A stretch of DNA of 64,000 nucleotides, from positions 1 to 64,000 of IMG/VR virus record IMGVR_UViG_3300036770_003728, one strand, 5' to 3'. Below, in pieces: positions 7,787 to 61,708 of this stretch. Every line of letters starts with the position of its first letter. Position 1 is the stretch's first letter. The DNA comes from a virus. The notes beneath the pieces were generated by a model, which worked only from the letters and a program-made list of their open reading frames with translations, was not told the origin of the DNA and did no database searches. The translations under genes and the position numbers were made by a program.

Positions 7787-8482
7787 TTACCGAATACGGT
7801 AATACTCACCAACACGATCACACCAACGATTAGTCCACATATCAAAATCTTCAGGCTCCAGCACAAACTCTTGATACTCAGGTTCAGCACCTTCTTCTGG
7901 GCGCACACACATCATTACTACACCTTTACGAATATTGGTGCCATAAACTTCATTGTGTGCTAGTGCATAAGCAGTAAGTTGTAGGAAATAGTCATCAATC
8001 CACTCACGACGTTTAGGCTTGTTGCTTTGCTTAAAGTCTAGTATGGCTTCTGCGCCATTGTGTACTCCTACACAGTCTGTGGTGCCAGCATATAGTTCAG
8101 GAAAGTATAACCCAACTTCATTGCCCCAGACTTCGTCGACGTTTTTGAAACCTTGTTCAATGATAGTTTGTGCCATACGAAAACTACGTTGGCTTTCTGG
8201 ATGAGTACCCGGAGTACCTGCATTACCGGTTTGTACATAGTTTTCTAACCATTTGTGCATGCGAGTACCTCTACTTGCAGCTTCTGTGGTTATAGCTTGC
8301 GCTCGTTGTTCACCTACTCGTTTTCGCCATTCTTGTAGTGCTTGTTTAGCTTCTTCGGGTTTGGTACGATCAAGTATGGTAGTCACTGATGGAACACGAT
8401 GACCCAATGGAGTCACATAATAACGTGCCCCATTTAGGTTTTCTCTATTGATTTGTTTATAGTTGTATTTTTGTATAAGCAT
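7787..8482 (-). CDS. PD-(D/E)XK exonuclease (Cas4/MGME1-like phage exonuclease)
   Basis: PSVTTIL, RGTRMH, AGTTD, ILDFKQS, QLTAY. Confidence 0.88.
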   Translation of the reverse strand: MLIQKYNYKQINRENLNGARYYVTPLGHRVPSVTTILDRTKPEEAKQALQEWRKRVGEQRAQAITTEAASRGTRMHKWLENYVQTGNAGTPGTHPESQRSFRMAQTIIEQGFKNVDEVWGNEVGLYFPELYAGTTDCVGVHNGAEAILDFKQSNKPKRREWIDDYFLQLTAYALAHNEVYGTNIRKGVVMMCVRPEEGAEPEYQEFVLEPEDFDMWTNRWCDRVGEYYRIR

Positions 8483-8521: not shown

Positions 8522-8905
8522 TTAAGTGCGTTTTGTTGCTGCTCGTTTTGCCATTGATTTCACAGTGGCTTGAGGATTATGAGCGCCACCGGGTTGATCC
8601 ATAACATCGTCGTTGGGTAGTGCATCATCCATATTATCAACTAACCCTTTGAGATATACATACTTGACACCGCTGTCATCGTCGCTGATATTTCGAATCA
8701 TATTCTTTACCGCAGAATTGTCTTTGACTAAATCTGCTAAGATATCCACATTGAACATTTCGCTGCCAGGCTTTTTCCTAACCAAATTTACTAGACTATC
8801 CACACGAATCTGATCAGTGCGCTCACGCAGTGTTTCTAATACACTGACCAAATTGGTAGCCGAGGGAGAAAATTCTCCCTCAAATGTAAACTCTCTGGCT
8901 CGCAT
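8522..8905 (-). CDS. Hypothetical protein (probable internal head protein)
   Basis: MRAREFTFE N-terminus. Confidence 0.65.
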   Translation of the reverse strand: MRAREFTFEGEFSPSATNLVSVLETLRERTDQIRVDSLVNLVRKKPGSEMFNVDILADLVKDNSAVKNMIRNISDDDSGVKYVYLKGLVDNMDDALPNDDVMDQPGGAHNPQATVKSMAKRAATKRT

Positions 8906-11108: not shown

Positions 11109-11132
11109 AAAAAAGCCTGCCGAAGCAGGCTT
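11109..11132 (-). terminator. Rho-independent terminator
   Basis: GCCTGC-TTCG-GCAGGC-TTTTTT. Confidence 0.9.
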
Positions 11133-11149: not shown

Positions 11150-11500
11150 TTAAGCTACTGTGATGCTGGTACCTAGTGCAACTGTGGTGTTAGCATCTAG
11201 GAATTGATGTAAACGACGCTGAATAACAGCAGCGTCAACATTGTGACCATGCATAACAACGTGGATTTGACCACTGGTGTTGCTTGGGCTCATGTACATT
11301 AGAGGATTTAATTCGCTAACCACACGCTCAACAATTTGACCTGCTTCGTTAGCAGCATCGCCGTCTTCGTTTTGTAGGTTAACGGCTGTGTTGGTAGCAT
11401 CTTTTACAGTGATCAAAAATGCTTTATAATCAGCTGTACTAAACAATGTACCAGTGTTGAAATTGCCTAAATAACCATTAATTCTTGTAAATGTTGCCAT
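11150..11500 (-). CDS. Probable abundant virion protein (monocistronic late gene)
   Basis: Own TAAATA, 5' TACGC-GAAA-GCGTA hairpin, AAGGA SD and own terminator. Confidence 0.65.
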   Translation of the reverse strand: MATFTRINGYLGNFNTGTLFSTADYKAFLITVKDATNTAVNLQNEDGDAANEAGQIVERVVSELNPLMYMSPSNTSGQIHVVMHGHNVDAAVIQRRLHQFLDANTTVALGTSITVA

Positions 11501-11556: not shown

Positions 11557-12627
11557 TTATTTTTTCGCATTGAAGCCGGCAAAATGCGCCGCAGTGAATC
11601 CACCACGTTGTACTAATTTTACTAATCCATGTTTACTGGGAAATACAAAACCTTCACCTTGGGGTTGGCCGTTTACAAACTGTTGAAACCCTTGTACTTG
11701 TTTTTCTAACTGTTGGGCAATATTTTCTTTGAAGTTGCTGATAGCGTTCCAGGTCTTAAACAAGGCTGTTAGTGCTGCTCTATTTTGTATAAGATAACCA
11801 TTGTTGTCATCGCCTATTAGTGCTTGAAATTGCTTGGCACTAACATTTGTACGTAGCCATTCACTAAGCGGCAAATTGGTTTTACCGATTTTGGTATGAA
11901 CCAAGTATTTGCTTAGTGCATCCTGTGCGGTCTTGGTCATGCCATGCAAAAATACATCTATGGCATTGCCATACTGACTAACTGCGCCTGCTGCTTGTTG
12001 TGCTAGATTACCTACTGCACGTACTCGGAATTTTACACCAGCACTGGGAGGAATAATAGCCACTTGGTTGTTGCTGCTTAATCCTTGACCATTCCATGGT
12101 GATTGGTTAAATTCGTGTACCACTATCAGTGCCCGGCGCCCAGAGATTAATTGTCCTAGTTCGCTGTCTACAGGGACATGATATTCTACTGTGACAGGTT
12201 TGAAAACAAATTGTCCTTGTACAGGTTTCAACGGTCCTACAAACATTAAGTCGCCTTTGAATACACCGGCTGTGTCGCCTACTGCGGCTTCTAATCCGGG
12301 CCATATCAGATTAATCTTAGCATAAAGGTCGGCTCGATTAGATCCGCGACTTTGGTCATACTGTATCCATTCGTTTGGACTATGCGGAAATACTCCTTTG
12401 GCAGGCATGTACTTGTCTGCAATAAAAAATTGCCCAGTTGCATCACGTCCAAAATATAAAGCAATCATACCATCCCATTTAATACTGATACTTTGTGGAT
12501 TAGTTGCTATACTTTGCAAGGCCTGTACTGATTGTGCTGCGGCTGCACTGCCGGCAAATATACTGTCCTCAGGGTGAGGAATGCGAGGACCTTCAGCTTC
12601 AATAAGATAATCTGTTAAGGGCTTCAT
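11557..12627 (-). CDS. ATP-dependent ligase-superfamily (RNA-ligase-like) protein
   Basis: Motif I SIKWDG, III FKGDL, IV GEGFV, V LVKLV. Confidence 0.7.
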   Translation of the reverse strand: MKPLTDYLIEAEGPRIPHPEDSIFAGSAAAAQSVQALQSIATNPQSISIKWDGMIALYFGRDATGQFFIADKYMPAKGVFPHSPNEWIQYDQSRGSNRADLYAKINLIWPGLEAAVGDTAGVFKGDLMFVGPLKPVQGQFVFKPVTVEYHVPVDSELGQLISGRRALIVVHEFNQSPWNGQGLSSNNQVAIIPPSAGVKFRVRAVGNLAQQAAGAVSQYGNAIDVFLHGMTKTAQDALSKYLVHTKIGKTNLPLSEWLRTNVSAKQFQALIGDDNNGYLIQNRAALTALFKTWNAISNFKENIAQQLEKQVQGFQQFVNGQPQGEGFVFPSKHGLVKLVQRGGFTAAHFAGFNAKK

Positions 12628-13418
12628 TGTATACGATCCGTTAGATTTCTAAACCAAGCGGCTGTACCAGCTTGAGCAGTTTCCGGCAATCTAAATAATC
12701 CACGAGCAGCATCCTGTCTAGCCTGTGCTAGTTTGCCGTCGCGGTCTGGGTCTGTGGCCAATGCTGCCATAATGCTTTTAACACTGTTAAGGTCGCTTTC
12801 TTTAGCTTTGGGATTAAGCAAAATCTTCGCTACTTCTTTTCTAGTTCTTCCCACTACCTGATCGGTATCTCTAGTAACCAGTCGTCCTCCAAAAGCATCA
12901 AATTTCAAATTCTTAAATTTGGCCAAGCTGCTCATTAGCATAAAAACTTCTCTGCCCTTGAACTCGGGCTCATCATACATACCACGCGGGCCATGCTGAT
13001 GCCATGGTGCTACTACTGAAGCATCTTGTATGACCATTACATCAACTTGAGCCATGCCACGGCCGCCGGCAGCTGGTTTATAAGGAATTCCGATATGTAC
13101 ATTACGTCCACTGACCACGCTGGTGATACCCTGTTGTTCAAAATGCTGCTTGAGTAATTGTTTAGCTTCTTTTACAGGATCTTTGCTGTCTTGAGTTTTG
13201 AAAAACTCAACACAATCACTGGCTTCTACCATGATATCAATGTCGCCGCTTTCCACTTTGAACCCAGCACTGCCTATGTCTACCTGTAGTCCACGAGCGA
13301 TAGGTTTTGGCAACAGACCTTTGGCAACTGCTACTACTCCACGCACATCATCTCGTGCCACTGGATTAGAGTTGGGTATGGCGTTACCGCCTTCATATAT
13401 TTTAAGCAAGTTACTCAT
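12624..13418 (-). CDS. DNA polymerase beta-superfamily nucleotidyltransferase
   Basis: IGSAG...SGDIDI and QVDVM catalytic aspartates; start moved to MSNLLKIYE. Confidence 0.75.
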   Translation of the reverse strand: MSNLLKIYEGGNAIPNSNPVARDDVRGVVAVAKGLLPKPIARGLQVDIGSAGFKVESGDIDIMVEASDCVEFFKTQDSKDPVKEAKQLLKQHFEQQGITSVVSGRNVHIGIPYKPAAGGRGMAQVDVMVIQDASVVAPWHQHGPRGMYDEPEFKGREVFMLMSSLAKFKNLKFDAFGGRLVTRDTDQVVGRTRKEVAKILLNPKAKESDLNSVKSIMAALATDPDRDGKLAQARQDAARGLFRLPETAQAGTAAWFRNLTDRIQ

Positions 13419-13656
13419 CGCGCAATTTCCTAATGCCACGAGCAAATTTTGCTGAATCACCACTGCGTATGCTGTTGAGTAATCTACGTTCTAGTTCAGC
13501 AGCTACCTCAGGTTGGTAATTTTCTTTAATGAACTGTAGAAGATTAATTGCACCTTGTATGACATTAGCGGCTCGAGTTTCCACAAAATTTTCTTTGTCT
13601 TTTCTCAGTCGCAAACTATCTAACTCAGCTAATATACTTCTAGTATGTTTTTGCAA
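13411..13656 (-). CDS. Hypothetical protein
   Basis: TTG start with AGGAG SD and TAAATA upstream. Confidence 0.7.
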   Translation of the reverse strand: MQKHTRSILAELDSLRLRKDKENFVETRAANVIQGAINLLQFIKENYQPEVAAELERRLLNSIRSGDSAKFARGIRKLRDE

Positions 13657-13691
13657 AACCTACTCCTAATGCAATATTTAGCCGTGAATTG

Positions 13692-44093: not shown

Positions 44094-44272
44094 TTGGTCT
44101 TCCTTGATTTCAATGAACGAGCTAAACGTAACACAATATTCTCTACTTTGTCAAGCTCATGTCTGATTTCAATTTGCTCTTTCAAATCTCGCAAACTGTT
44201 GTCAATTAGCTCTATGTATCTTATTAATTTATCTACTCTAGCTTCAAGCTCATCAAATCTATCTGGCATCAC
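44090..44272 (-). CDS. Hypothetical coiled-coil protein
   Basis: Coupled ORF. Confidence 0.6.
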   Translation of the reverse strand: MMPDRFDELEARVDKLIRYIELIDNSLRDLKEQIEIRHELDKVENIVLRLARSLKSRKTK

Positions 44273-45342
44273 TCGGCTTCGGCACTATCTCCCGAAGGCT
44301 CCTCTTTCGTTACCTGGTGTGGATTAGCCACAAAATCGGCCATAACCCTGTCCAGACTCGAATCCTCATTGCGCTCCCAGGCTTTACGAAACTGCTTAAT
44401 CACAGTGCCGTCTGCCAATGTATATTTAAGACTATTGCCATCTTTTTGAAGTAAGCCTTTTCCTTCAAACAAGTCTACCAAGCCTGAGTAGGGATTCATC
44501 CCAGTCTCATACGGAATTTTGACTTGTACACTTTCAAAAGGTTTGGCATATCGTGTTTTCATAATCTTACAGGCTGATCGAATGCCTTTGACTTCGGATA
44601 TCTTATTGCCATCCTCATCCTCTTTGAGCTTGAGTTTACGCATGGCTACTACAATCGAACTAGCATAGATAAAGCCTTGCCCACCTGAGATCTTGTCATC
44701 CGGATCAAACATGTCTTGGCTGGCATAGGTATGATTAGTTGCTACTAGGCCAATGTTAAGACTGCCAAACATATTCACACAGTTTCTAACCAATGCTGTT
44801 AGTGCTTTGGGCTTTCGTCCTAGGTCACCTTTAAGGTCGCCTGCGTCAAACTGATTCACATCAGTGGGAGTCAACAACATGCCCAAGCTATCTAATACAA
44901 ACAAGACTTTGGGACGTGACTCTTCAGGTAATGTTTTGTACTCTTTTACGAACTCACTAATCATTTTAGCCACATCATCAATCATGGCCATGTTGAGTTT
45001 GAGTAATTTACTTTCATCAGTATCAACGCCTAGTGCTTTAAGCCAGTCTTCGTCTAGTGCGTTTTCAGTATCAATAAGGATAGGATAGATACCTTGTTGT
45101 TGGGCGTGCCTAATCAAATTACCACTACAGATAAAACTCTTACCGGCACCAGATTCGCCAGCAAATACCGTTACTTTACCAAGAGGCACTCCCCTGTCAA
45201 AAGCACCGGAAATTAGGTAGTTTAAGGCGTAATTTCCGGTGGAAATCCAGTCTGTAGGGTCGTTAAATCCAATGCTAACGCCTTCAATGCTCTTAGTTAT
45301 GCTTTTGCGAAATTTCGACAAATCAAAAGGTCTTTGTGCCAT
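44269..45342 (-). CDS. uvsX: RecA/UvsX recombinase
   Basis: ISTGNYALN, GESGAGKS, IDTENA, VLDSLG, SGGQG, KTR. Confidence 0.95.
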   Translation of the reverse strand: MAQRPFDLSKFRKSITKSIEGVSIGFNDPTDWISTGNYALNYLISGAFDRGVPLGKVTVFAGESGAGKSFICSGNLIRHAQQQGIYPILIDTENALDEDWLKALGVDTDESKLLKLNMAMIDDVAKMISEFVKEYKTLPEESRPKVLFVLDSLGMLLTPTDVNQFDAGDLKGDLGRKPKALTALVRNCVNMFGSLNIGLVATNHTYASQDMFDPDDKISGGQGFIYASSIVVAMRKLKLKEDEDGNKISEVKGIRSACKIMKTRYAKPFESVQVKIPYETGMNPYSGLVDLFEGKGLLQKDGNSLKYTLADGTVIKQFRKAWERNEDSSLDRVMADFVANPHQVTKEEPSGDSAEAE

Positions 45343-61330: not shown

Positions 61331-61708
61331 TCAAACCCCGTAACGGTTTCTTTTCTTACTGGCAGTAGGACTCTTTTTGTTTACCGAATTAGATTCACGG
61401 CTTTTTTGATCTTGTACTACATGATCAACATCGCTGTTGATTACATTAAATGCTTGATGCATCATGTCATGCTCTAGTTCTGTGTAGGGTACCGCTACAT
61501 TTTTACTATGAAACCAAGTACGGTCATCTATAGGCAGTTTATCCTTACTGCCATCGGCCATTGCAGCCGCCATACCTACACGATAAAAGTTATAGGTTCC
61601 ATTAGTTTTATAGCCATCTCCATAGGCATGAGTACGATGCATAGCTTTACTATGTGACTTAGGCAATTTACCTTTATGCCCTTCTAATATAATTTCATTG
61701 ATTTTCAT
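61331..61708 (-). CDS. Hypothetical internal head protein, paralog B
   Basis: MKINEIILE; YNFYRVGMAAAMADG; PYT; NRYGV. Confidence 0.75.
   Translation of the reverse strand: MKINEIILEGHKGKLPKSHSKAMHRTHAYGDGYKTNGTYNFYRVGMAAAMADGSKDKLPIDDRTWFHSKNVAVPYTELEHDMMHQAFNVINSDVDHVVQDQKSRESNSVNKKSPTASKKRNRYGV

Follow-up and report, generated by a model that had tools for sequence, protein, structure and literature searches.

The 64,000-nucleotide stretch of DNA analysed here (positions 1 to 64,000 of the IMG/VR virus record IMGVR_UViG_3300036770_003728, hereafter the window) carries two overlapping genes, designated A and B, whose products resemble a family-X DNA polymerase (PolX) and a nucleic-acid ligase, respectively. 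The initial annotation of this DNA had described them as ATGA-coupled genes for a Pol-beta-fold nucleotidyltransferase (NTase) and a ligase-superfamily protein, both with leaders of the capsid-targeting type; both open reading frames (ORFs) are real, and they share the four nucleotides of the ATGA (Table 1). The window is part of a 76-kb record of approximately 22% completeness and thus represents a fragment of a jumbo phage genome. All of its genes lie on the minus strand; among them are those for ribonucleotide reductase, a DnaB helicase, a primase, the terminase, and the tail sheath and tube. The terminase is closest to that of Pseudomonas phage PA5oct (54% identity), followed by those of Atu_ph07-type phages. 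These phages are distant members of the T4 superfamily, and PA5oct and Atu_ph07 are the nearest cultured relatives. A set of 80 related IMG/VR viral loci, containing 1230 ORFs, was used to compare the locus across relatives.

Gene A has more than 500 close homologs in metagenomes, and neither Pfam nor PHROG contains a family that it matched. Against PDB sequences, neither single proteins nor profiles of A or B gave a significant hit, and tblastn against cultured phages found nothing for A and a single weak match for B; the homologs in PA5oct and Atu_ph07 were reached by profile searches only. No match to Pfam DNA_pol_B_palm or DNA_pol_B_thumb was obtained for A and 28 family members at E up to 5, and one ESM Atlas cluster with PF14792 in 17% of its members serves as a lead only. 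The A model, built from 28 sequences (predicted local distance difference test score, pLDDT, 85), matched Pol lambda in Foldseek (E 1e-7), and VIA-align, a structural aligner independent of Foldseek, placed the PolX of African swine fever virus (ASFV) at the top (Z 9.7, root-mean-square deviation 3.3, 159 of 176 residues aligned), followed by the Pol beta palm-thumb, TdT, Pol lambda and Thermus (Tth) PolX (Z 8.7–9.3). The eight best matches were all PolX enzymes (Z 8.7–9.7) spanning model residues 14–216, whereas TUTases, CD-NTases and CCA enzymes aligned to the palm only (approximately 100–125 residues, Z at most 7.5). Residues G49 S50, D59, D61 and Q124 D126 M128 are invariant in the 28 sequences, which include fused forms of approximately 24% identity, and we take the pattern GSxGxK..SGDIDxM to resemble the PolX signature.

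The 8-kDa dRP-lyase and fingers (HhH) domains are missing from A, in which the alignments begin at the palm and approximately 16 residues precede it; a conserved N-terminal EGGN motif and a C-terminal helical tail are additional elements. Taken together, the PolX-only matches across palm and thumb and the invariant motifs make it well supported, at the level of a fold model, that A is a minimal, family-X-polymerase-like NTase of palm plus thumb. The Pol-beta assignment of the initial annotation is thereby upheld and narrowed to PolX, with the GS, the DxD and the third Asp all invariant. RlaP was considered as the family of A and rejected, as none of the 28 A-family members matched PF10127 at E up to 5. 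The phage record gave no PF10127 match at E up to 1, and the true RlaP of Atu_ph07 is encoded at a locus separate from the A-like gene.

Gene B belongs to Pfam DUF6267 (PF19782; E 7e-27, 95.1 bits against a cut-off of 27, profile positions 5–372 of 376). This family is present in 467 phage records, including most T4-like cyanophages, and no mention of it was found in the literature searched. The B model (pLDDT 89.5) produced weak Foldseek matches only, to capping enzymes (mRNA guanylyltransferases) and RNA ligases at E of approximately 0.08. In VIA-align, 23 of the 25 chains with Z of at least 5 were adenylyltransferase domains of RNA or DNA ligases (Z 5.1–7.0, 155–193 residues aligned), with NgrRnl and TbREL1 at 7.0, T4 Rnl2 at 6.3, Lig IV at 6.2 and T4 Rnl1 at 6.1, although values of 5–7 are modest by the aligner's own guidance and to that extent tell against a ligase-based reading. 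All of the 28 aligned sequences carry K50 W51 D52 G53, D126, E325 G326 V328 and K337, and at least 90% of them have G125 and F327. The remaining ligase motifs, assigned by order and spacing, would be G125 D126 (III), F142..Y149 (IIIa), E325 G326 F327 V328 (IV) and K337 (V), all candidate residues being invariant or at least 90% conserved. When cyanophage DUF6267 proteins and the PA5oct and Atu_ph07 candidates described below (gp256 and gp066) were added to the alignment, K50 W51 D52 G53 stayed invariant and most of the other invariant residues survived.

The model of B consists of an NTase domain, a helical insert (approximately residues 206–308) placed before motifs IV and V, and a terminal helix; no OB domain was found in it. 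This architecture is closer to that of RNA ligases, but DNA and RNA ligases tie in Z, so that the substrate may be either DNA or RNA. Given the fold and the conserved KWDG, GD, EGFV and K motifs, the ligase-superfamily call made for B at the outset stands, and its modelled placement in the ligase/capping covalent nucleotidyltransferase superfamily, together with ATP-dependent RNA and DNA ligases, is well supported. A canonical ligase domain (PF01068, DNA_ligase_A_M) was not found in the phage record.

The same data bear on whether the pair, instead of repairing breaks in polynucleotides, might nucleotidylylate a different target, such as genome ends (by capping or adenylylation), NAD or nucleotide metabolites, or a host molecule, with B behaving like a capping enzyme or a dedicated adenylyltransferase. 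Such a role would fit the mRNA guanylyltransferases among the best Foldseek matches of B, its lack of an OB or other known nucleic-acid-clamping domain, and the recurrent fusion to, or neighbourhood with, a HIGH-motif (NMNAT/cytidylyltransferase-like) domain and an NT5C-type phosphatase. However, ligases rather than capping enzymes fill 23 of the 25 best VIA-align rows for B, and the best matches of A are templated family-X polymerases, thumb included. HAD-type phosphatases and extra NTases are, moreover, typical of end-healing systems (T4 Pnkp). We therefore regard a non-ligase target as unlikely.

The two genes are tightly associated across relatives. Homologs of A were found by tblastn just upstream of B in 60 of the 80 related loci, within the conserved order DnaB, C, (variable genes), A, B, and many relatives encode a single chain of approximately 600–650 amino acids (about 615) with the A part preceding the B part. 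A profile search collected 1630 representative clusters (50% identity), many of them fused and some carrying further domains. Because of this adjacency and the many fused proteins of the same order, the pairing is not attributable to chance; the coupling of A and B is well supported, and the two genes are linked among relatives. In PA5oct, the A-like gp253 (hhalign probability 94.8% to A) lies three genes from gp256, which carries KIDG and EGYV..K..K motifs, and the A-like gene of Atu_ph07, gp065, is located immediately after gp066, whose product weakly matches Pfam RNA_ligase (E 0.002). Both gp256 (NC_071039.1 150524-151864) and gp066 (NC_042013.1 52163-53137) are annotated as hypothetical and share the ligase motifs KIDG/KLDG and EGYV/EGVV followed by K; judging from these motifs, they are probably unrecognised, divergent ligase-like proteins. 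Their link to B rests on the motifs, the weak Pfam RNA_ligase match and a MAFFT alignment, hhalign of B against single PA5oct and Atu_ph07 proteins being uninformative. T4-like cyanophages encode DUF6267 but not A; the gene lies just behind that of the gp41 helicase and is often next to or fused with a HIGH-type domain. The genes upstream of cyanophage DUF6267 were considered as counterparts of A and rejected, since they are not A-like.

Some fused proteins contain additional domains, among them a nucleotidyltransferase with a HIGH motif (GGFKPPHAGH or GRFQPF..HH type, CTP_transf_like) and a phosphatase of the NT5C type; Atlas clusters add a Cu/Zn superoxide dismutase. Fusion or adjacency of the HIGH-motif NMNAT/cytidylyltransferase-like domain (PF01467) to DUF6267 recurs, both where the PolX-like domain is present and where it is absent (proteins P0245, P0273, P0311, P0329, P0276, P0270 and P0282; loci L092, S-PM2 p141/p142, and L093, Melnitz gene 18). 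In S-PM2, DUF6267 is split into p141 and p142, the second half being fused to a HIGH-type domain annotated as 'cytidyltransferase'. One viral ESM Atlas cluster fuses DUF6267 to a Cu/Zn superoxide dismutase (Sod_Cu), and a 1308-amino-acid protein (P0256) joins it to DUF5661 and an NT5C-type phosphatase; these fusions may represent cargo polyproteins or end-healing domains.

Such combinations raise the question of whether A and B are independent cargo, adjacent or fused merely as head-cargo polyproteins that are cut at [LI]xE sites. Atlas clusters that fuse DUF6267 to Sod_Cu or CTP_transf_like, the unrelated extra domains of multidomain relatives and the retention of [LI]xE at domain junctions are in keeping with this idea, and the fusions to unrelated Sod_Cu and NT5C suggest that some of them reflect shared packaging and not shared chemistry, which weighs against the joint extend-and-seal function proposed below. 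Yet the order A then B is found repeatedly in lineages that have diverged widely, the A-like genes of Atu_ph07 and PA5oct also have a ligase-like gene beside or near them, and known repair systems often team an extending NTase with a ligase; we hold functionally independent cargo to be a very improbable explanation.

Upstream of the pair lies a third gene, C, which overlaps the start of A by 8 nt and is itself preceded by a TAAATA motif, so that the unit is C-A-B. The initial annotation had placed the pair downstream of a late TAAATA; the motif is present as described, but it directly precedes C and not A. The search for terminators gave no convincing candidate between C, A and B, and the hairpin beyond the following gene is likely the end of the transcription unit. 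Gene C is kept between DnaB and A in 64 of the 80 related loci, and its position is homologous to that of PA5oct gp259 and Atu_ph07 gp068, both annotated as virion structural proteins. On the coding strand, 17 of the 36 TAAATA copies fall in the non-coding 6.8% of the window, an intergenic over-representation of approximately sevenfold over the whole window. Many copies are located 8–74 nt before gene starts, including those of genes matching tail-tube and virion-protein families, and TAAATA is thus a candidate late-promoter core for this phage clade, as far as its distribution indicates. The full T4 late-promoter octamer, TATAAATA, was rejected as the promoter because it is not enriched in the window; the shorter TAAATA alone is.

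Table 1. Features of the C-A-B unit and further leader-bearing ORFs of the window (positions in the window)
Feature	Position	Strand	Basis or remark
TAAATA late-promoter-like motif	13675..13680	minus	24 nt upstream of gene C; intergenic enrichment; function putative
Gene C, 81 amino acids, first gene of unit	13411..13656	minus	phrog_11854 'virion structural protein', E 6e-15
Gene A, 264 amino acids, MSNLLKIYEGGN...	12624..13418	minus	ORF and fold model
Leader of A, first 9 codons, MSNLLKIYE	13392..13418	minus	putative propeptide and cut site; [LI]xE before invariant GGN
Gene B, 356 amino acids, MKPLTDYLIEAEGPR...	11557..12627	minus	ORF, DUF6267
Leader of B, first 10 codons, MKPLTDYLIE, then A	12598..12627	minus	capsid-targeting-sequence-like; [LI]xE site followed by A
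ATGA stop/start overlap of A and B, 4 nt	12624..12627	minus	sequence
Terminator-like hairpin, 8-bp stem and T run	11113..11132	minus	after next gene (11150-11500)
127-amino-acid ORF, leader MRAREFTFE, then G	8522..8905	minus	regex scan of all window ORFs
125-amino-acid ORF, start MKINEIILE, then G	61331..61708	minus	regex scan; same type as variable neighbours in related loci

The N-termini of both proteins were compared with the leaders of T4 head cargo. In T4, targeting depends on residues 4 and 7 of the capsid targeting sequence and processing on residues 8 and 10, with cleavage by gp21 following L/I-x-E (PMC9026906; PMC3012670); IPII and IPIII start with MKTYQEFIAE followed by A (read from NC_000866). 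Unfused orthologs of B follow the consensus MK[TS][YF]x[DE][YF]LxE then A, with 3–8 of 11 positions identical to T4 IPII/IPIII, and their conserved positions coincide with the functional T4 positions 4, 7, 8 and 10. Among 97 unfused orthologs, 40 have a 10-residue leader with an aromatic residue at 4 and 7, L8, E10 and A11, such as MKTYREFLIEA or MKTYRDFLVEA, the best being 8/11 identical to T4; in another 30, this pattern is shifted by an additional residue. The strict pattern is specific, as it was found in 23 of the 1230 ORFs of the related loci and all 23 are B. For B, L/I-x-E was found in 88 of 97 copies that are N-terminal and in 31 of 33 that are internal; in the internal copies it marks the A-B junction of the fused chain, with a small residue coming next. 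In the A family, L or I stands two residues before E in 220 of 224 members, with the motif N-terminal in 182 and internal in 42, and the A-like proteins of PA5oct and Atu_ph07 start right after the position of the [LI]xE glutamate (MSGN.. and MGGR..). Both leaders are disordered in the models (pLDDT below 50 for A residues 1–8 and B residues 1–14).

Comparison across B orthologs thus strengthened the proposal of capsid-targeting-like leaders, which for the B family are strikingly T4-like and in register with the [LI]xE site before A; for the two proteins of the window themselves the proposal fared less well, the leader of B having diverged and that of A being short and out of register. The cultured relatives provide context on packaging. 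Both PA5oct and Atu_ph07 encode a Peptidase_S77 (gp21-type) prohead protease. The A homolog of PA5oct, gp253, is annotated as 'structural protein, ESI-MS/MS' (electrospray ionisation tandem mass spectrometry), and most of its neighbours are likewise annotated as virion-detected. The PA5oct virion yielded 93 proteins by ESI-MS/MS, seven of them 'virion-unrelated enzymes' (PMC7318152).

Several observations count against the interpretation that A and B are addressed to the capsid. The B leader of the window is 4/11 identical to T4, keeping positions 1, 2, 10 and 11 and conservative residues at 4, 6, 7 and 8. The A leader comprises only 3–9 residues, out of register with T4, and its E belongs to the EGGN motif, which is invariant well beyond what a cut site would need and may therefore be structural. 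Fused forms start with MIRLFE.. and lack MKTY, and the cyanophage DUF6267 proteins are without leader and lie in a replication block after the gp41 helicase. No protease gene was found in the 76-kb record, which covers approximately 22% of the genome, and the candidate ligase of PA5oct, gp256, has no mass-spectrometry note in its record. The seven virion-unrelated enzymes came from the same virion preparation in which gp253 was detected. Weighing the leader similarity against these points, we find the capsid-addressing reading evenly balanced.

Much of this evidence also suits a cytoplasmic, unpackaged module that fills gaps and seals nicks during replication or repair, or repairs RNA ends in the manner of RlaP with an RNA ligase, the N-termini then being part of folded domains or of an A-B linker. 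A and B directly follow the DnaB helicase and primase genes, the leaderless DUF6267 of cyanophages has gp43, UvsX, gp41 and nrd genes around it, EGGN is invariant with L or I always ahead of it even within multidomain proteins, and gp256 is not among the virion-detected proteins according to the record annotation; pairings of a Pol-beta NTase with an RNA ligase are, in addition, common in jumbo phages (PMC7824862). What speaks against a purely cytoplasmic module is that the B leader is in register with the T4 targeting sequence and its strict pattern is B-specific, that a similar leader is found on variable neighbouring genes, that the leaders are modelled as disordered, that gp253 and most of its neighbours are annotated as virion-detected, and that a late-type motif lies upstream. 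We consider this alternative possible, though doubtful.

The packaged alternative, in which a late C-A-B unit supplies a capsid-targeted, PolX-like and ligase-like pair as an extend-and-seal module, seems to us a proposition that could equally prove right or wrong. From the folds, catalytic motifs, linkage and leader similarity we infer its steps, which extend to catalysis, substrate, cleavage, packaging and ejection. C-A-B would be one late-type transcription unit of a T4-related jumbo phage. Protein A would extend a 3' end by one or a few nucleotides, and B would form lysyl-AMP on K50 and seal a 5'-phosphate/3'-OH break, so that the two would constitute an extend-and-seal module acting on DNA or RNA. 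The peptides at the N-termini, most clearly those of the B family, would serve as T4-type capsid targeting and cleavage signals: the proteins would be loaded into the prohead core and trimmed after [LI]xE by a gp21-type protease, which in fused relatives would separate the A and B domains. They would then be carried in the head and probably exit with the DNA. After entry, their role may be the sealing of nicks and gaps in the genome, the protection or joining of its ends, or RNA repair, and by inference they could act against host defences. More tentative is the specific scenario in which a PolX-type polymerase and a pre-adenylylated ligase are head-loaded and delivered with the genome, so that incoming nicks, gaps, nuclease cuts or ends are repaired before phage expression begins.

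The surroundings of the unit in related loci show a further occurrence of shared leaders. Variable ORFs (130–1100 amino acids) around C, A and B (loci L003-L077) nearly all begin with MK-x-N-E-I-I-x-E followed by G, A or S, and in some relatives (P0246 and P0264) an MKxNEIIxE-type variable protein is fused in front of the A domain. T-even internal-protein loci encode diverse bodies with a shared tag (PMC3012670), and the variable neighbours of A and B match this picture of varied bodies and a common tag. On the strength of these N-termini, the variable genes downstream of DnaB look like a hypervariable internal-protein locus. The two further window ORFs with leaders of this kind (Table 1, last two rows) are candidates for additional head cargo. 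The window also encodes a PD-(D/E)XK nuclease-like protein (7787-8482, minus) and a RecA/UvsX-like protein (44269-45342, minus), two other DNA-repair or recombination functions, encoded outside the C-A-B unit.

DUF6267 and its PolX-like partner make up an enzyme family that is very large, confined to viruses and entirely uncharacterised. An extend-and-seal function is testable chemistry that would fill an annotation gap in jumbo phages and cyanophages, and as minimal enzymes a 264-amino-acid PolX and a ligase without an OB domain could find uses. If the capsid-targeting interpretation is true, phages bring ready-made repair enzymes into the cell, which would constitute a new class of early counter-defence and, to our knowledge, the first case of injected nucleic-acid repair enzymes; leaders delimited by [LI]xE would then make head cargo partly predictable from the genomes of uncultured phages.

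Three described systems come closest in the literature searched, each with only part of these features: the ASFV PolX-ligase pair, RNA repair by RlaP and Rnl, and the internal proteins of T4. In the viral base-excision repair pair of ASFV, a minimal palm-plus-thumb PolX acts beside a viral ATP-dependent DNA ligase; ASFV PolX, the best structural match of A, likewise lacks the 8-kDa and fingers domains, and the ASFV ligase is among the matches of B (Z 5.3). There is, however, no detectable sequence similarity to A or B. The extra EGGN motif and the C-terminal helical tail set A apart from ASFV PolX, and the ASFV ligase has OB and DNA-binding domains, whereas B lacks these and contains a helical insert. 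The host of the A-B pair is bacterial, and a capsid-targeting-like leader is present. RlaP-Rnl systems of jumbo phages resemble the pair in coupling the gene of a Pol-beta-superfamily NTase to that of an OB-less ATP-type ligase, with the predicted logic of restoring a lost nucleotide and then ligating. They differ in that A is not PF10127 and has a PolX-type thumb, that B is DUF6267 and neither Rnl1 nor Rnl2, and that RlaP systems have not been reported with capsid-targeting leaders.

Physical coupling of an end-filling polymerase to an ATP-dependent ligase is also known from eukaryotic and bacterial end joining, with Pol mu or Pol lambda and Lig IV in the former and the LigD polymerase and ligase domains in the latter. 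Structural matches of A and B include Pol lambda, Pol mu and Lig IV, but the pair is without Ku, BRCT and OB modules, and the LigD polymerase has a primase fold, unlike the PolX-like A. With the gp21-processed T4 proteins IPI, IPII, IPIII and Alt, the pair shares a 10-residue leader built on one pattern, which terminates in [LI]xE before A, the occurrence of one leader type on otherwise unrelated neighbouring genes, and a gp21-type protease in the nearest cultured relatives. The cargo of T4 consists of small inhibitors or DNA-binding proteins (the internal proteins) and of an ADP-ribosyltransferase (Alt), whereas the predicted cargo here would consist of two nucleic-acid enzymes, often made as one fused chain with an internal cut site.

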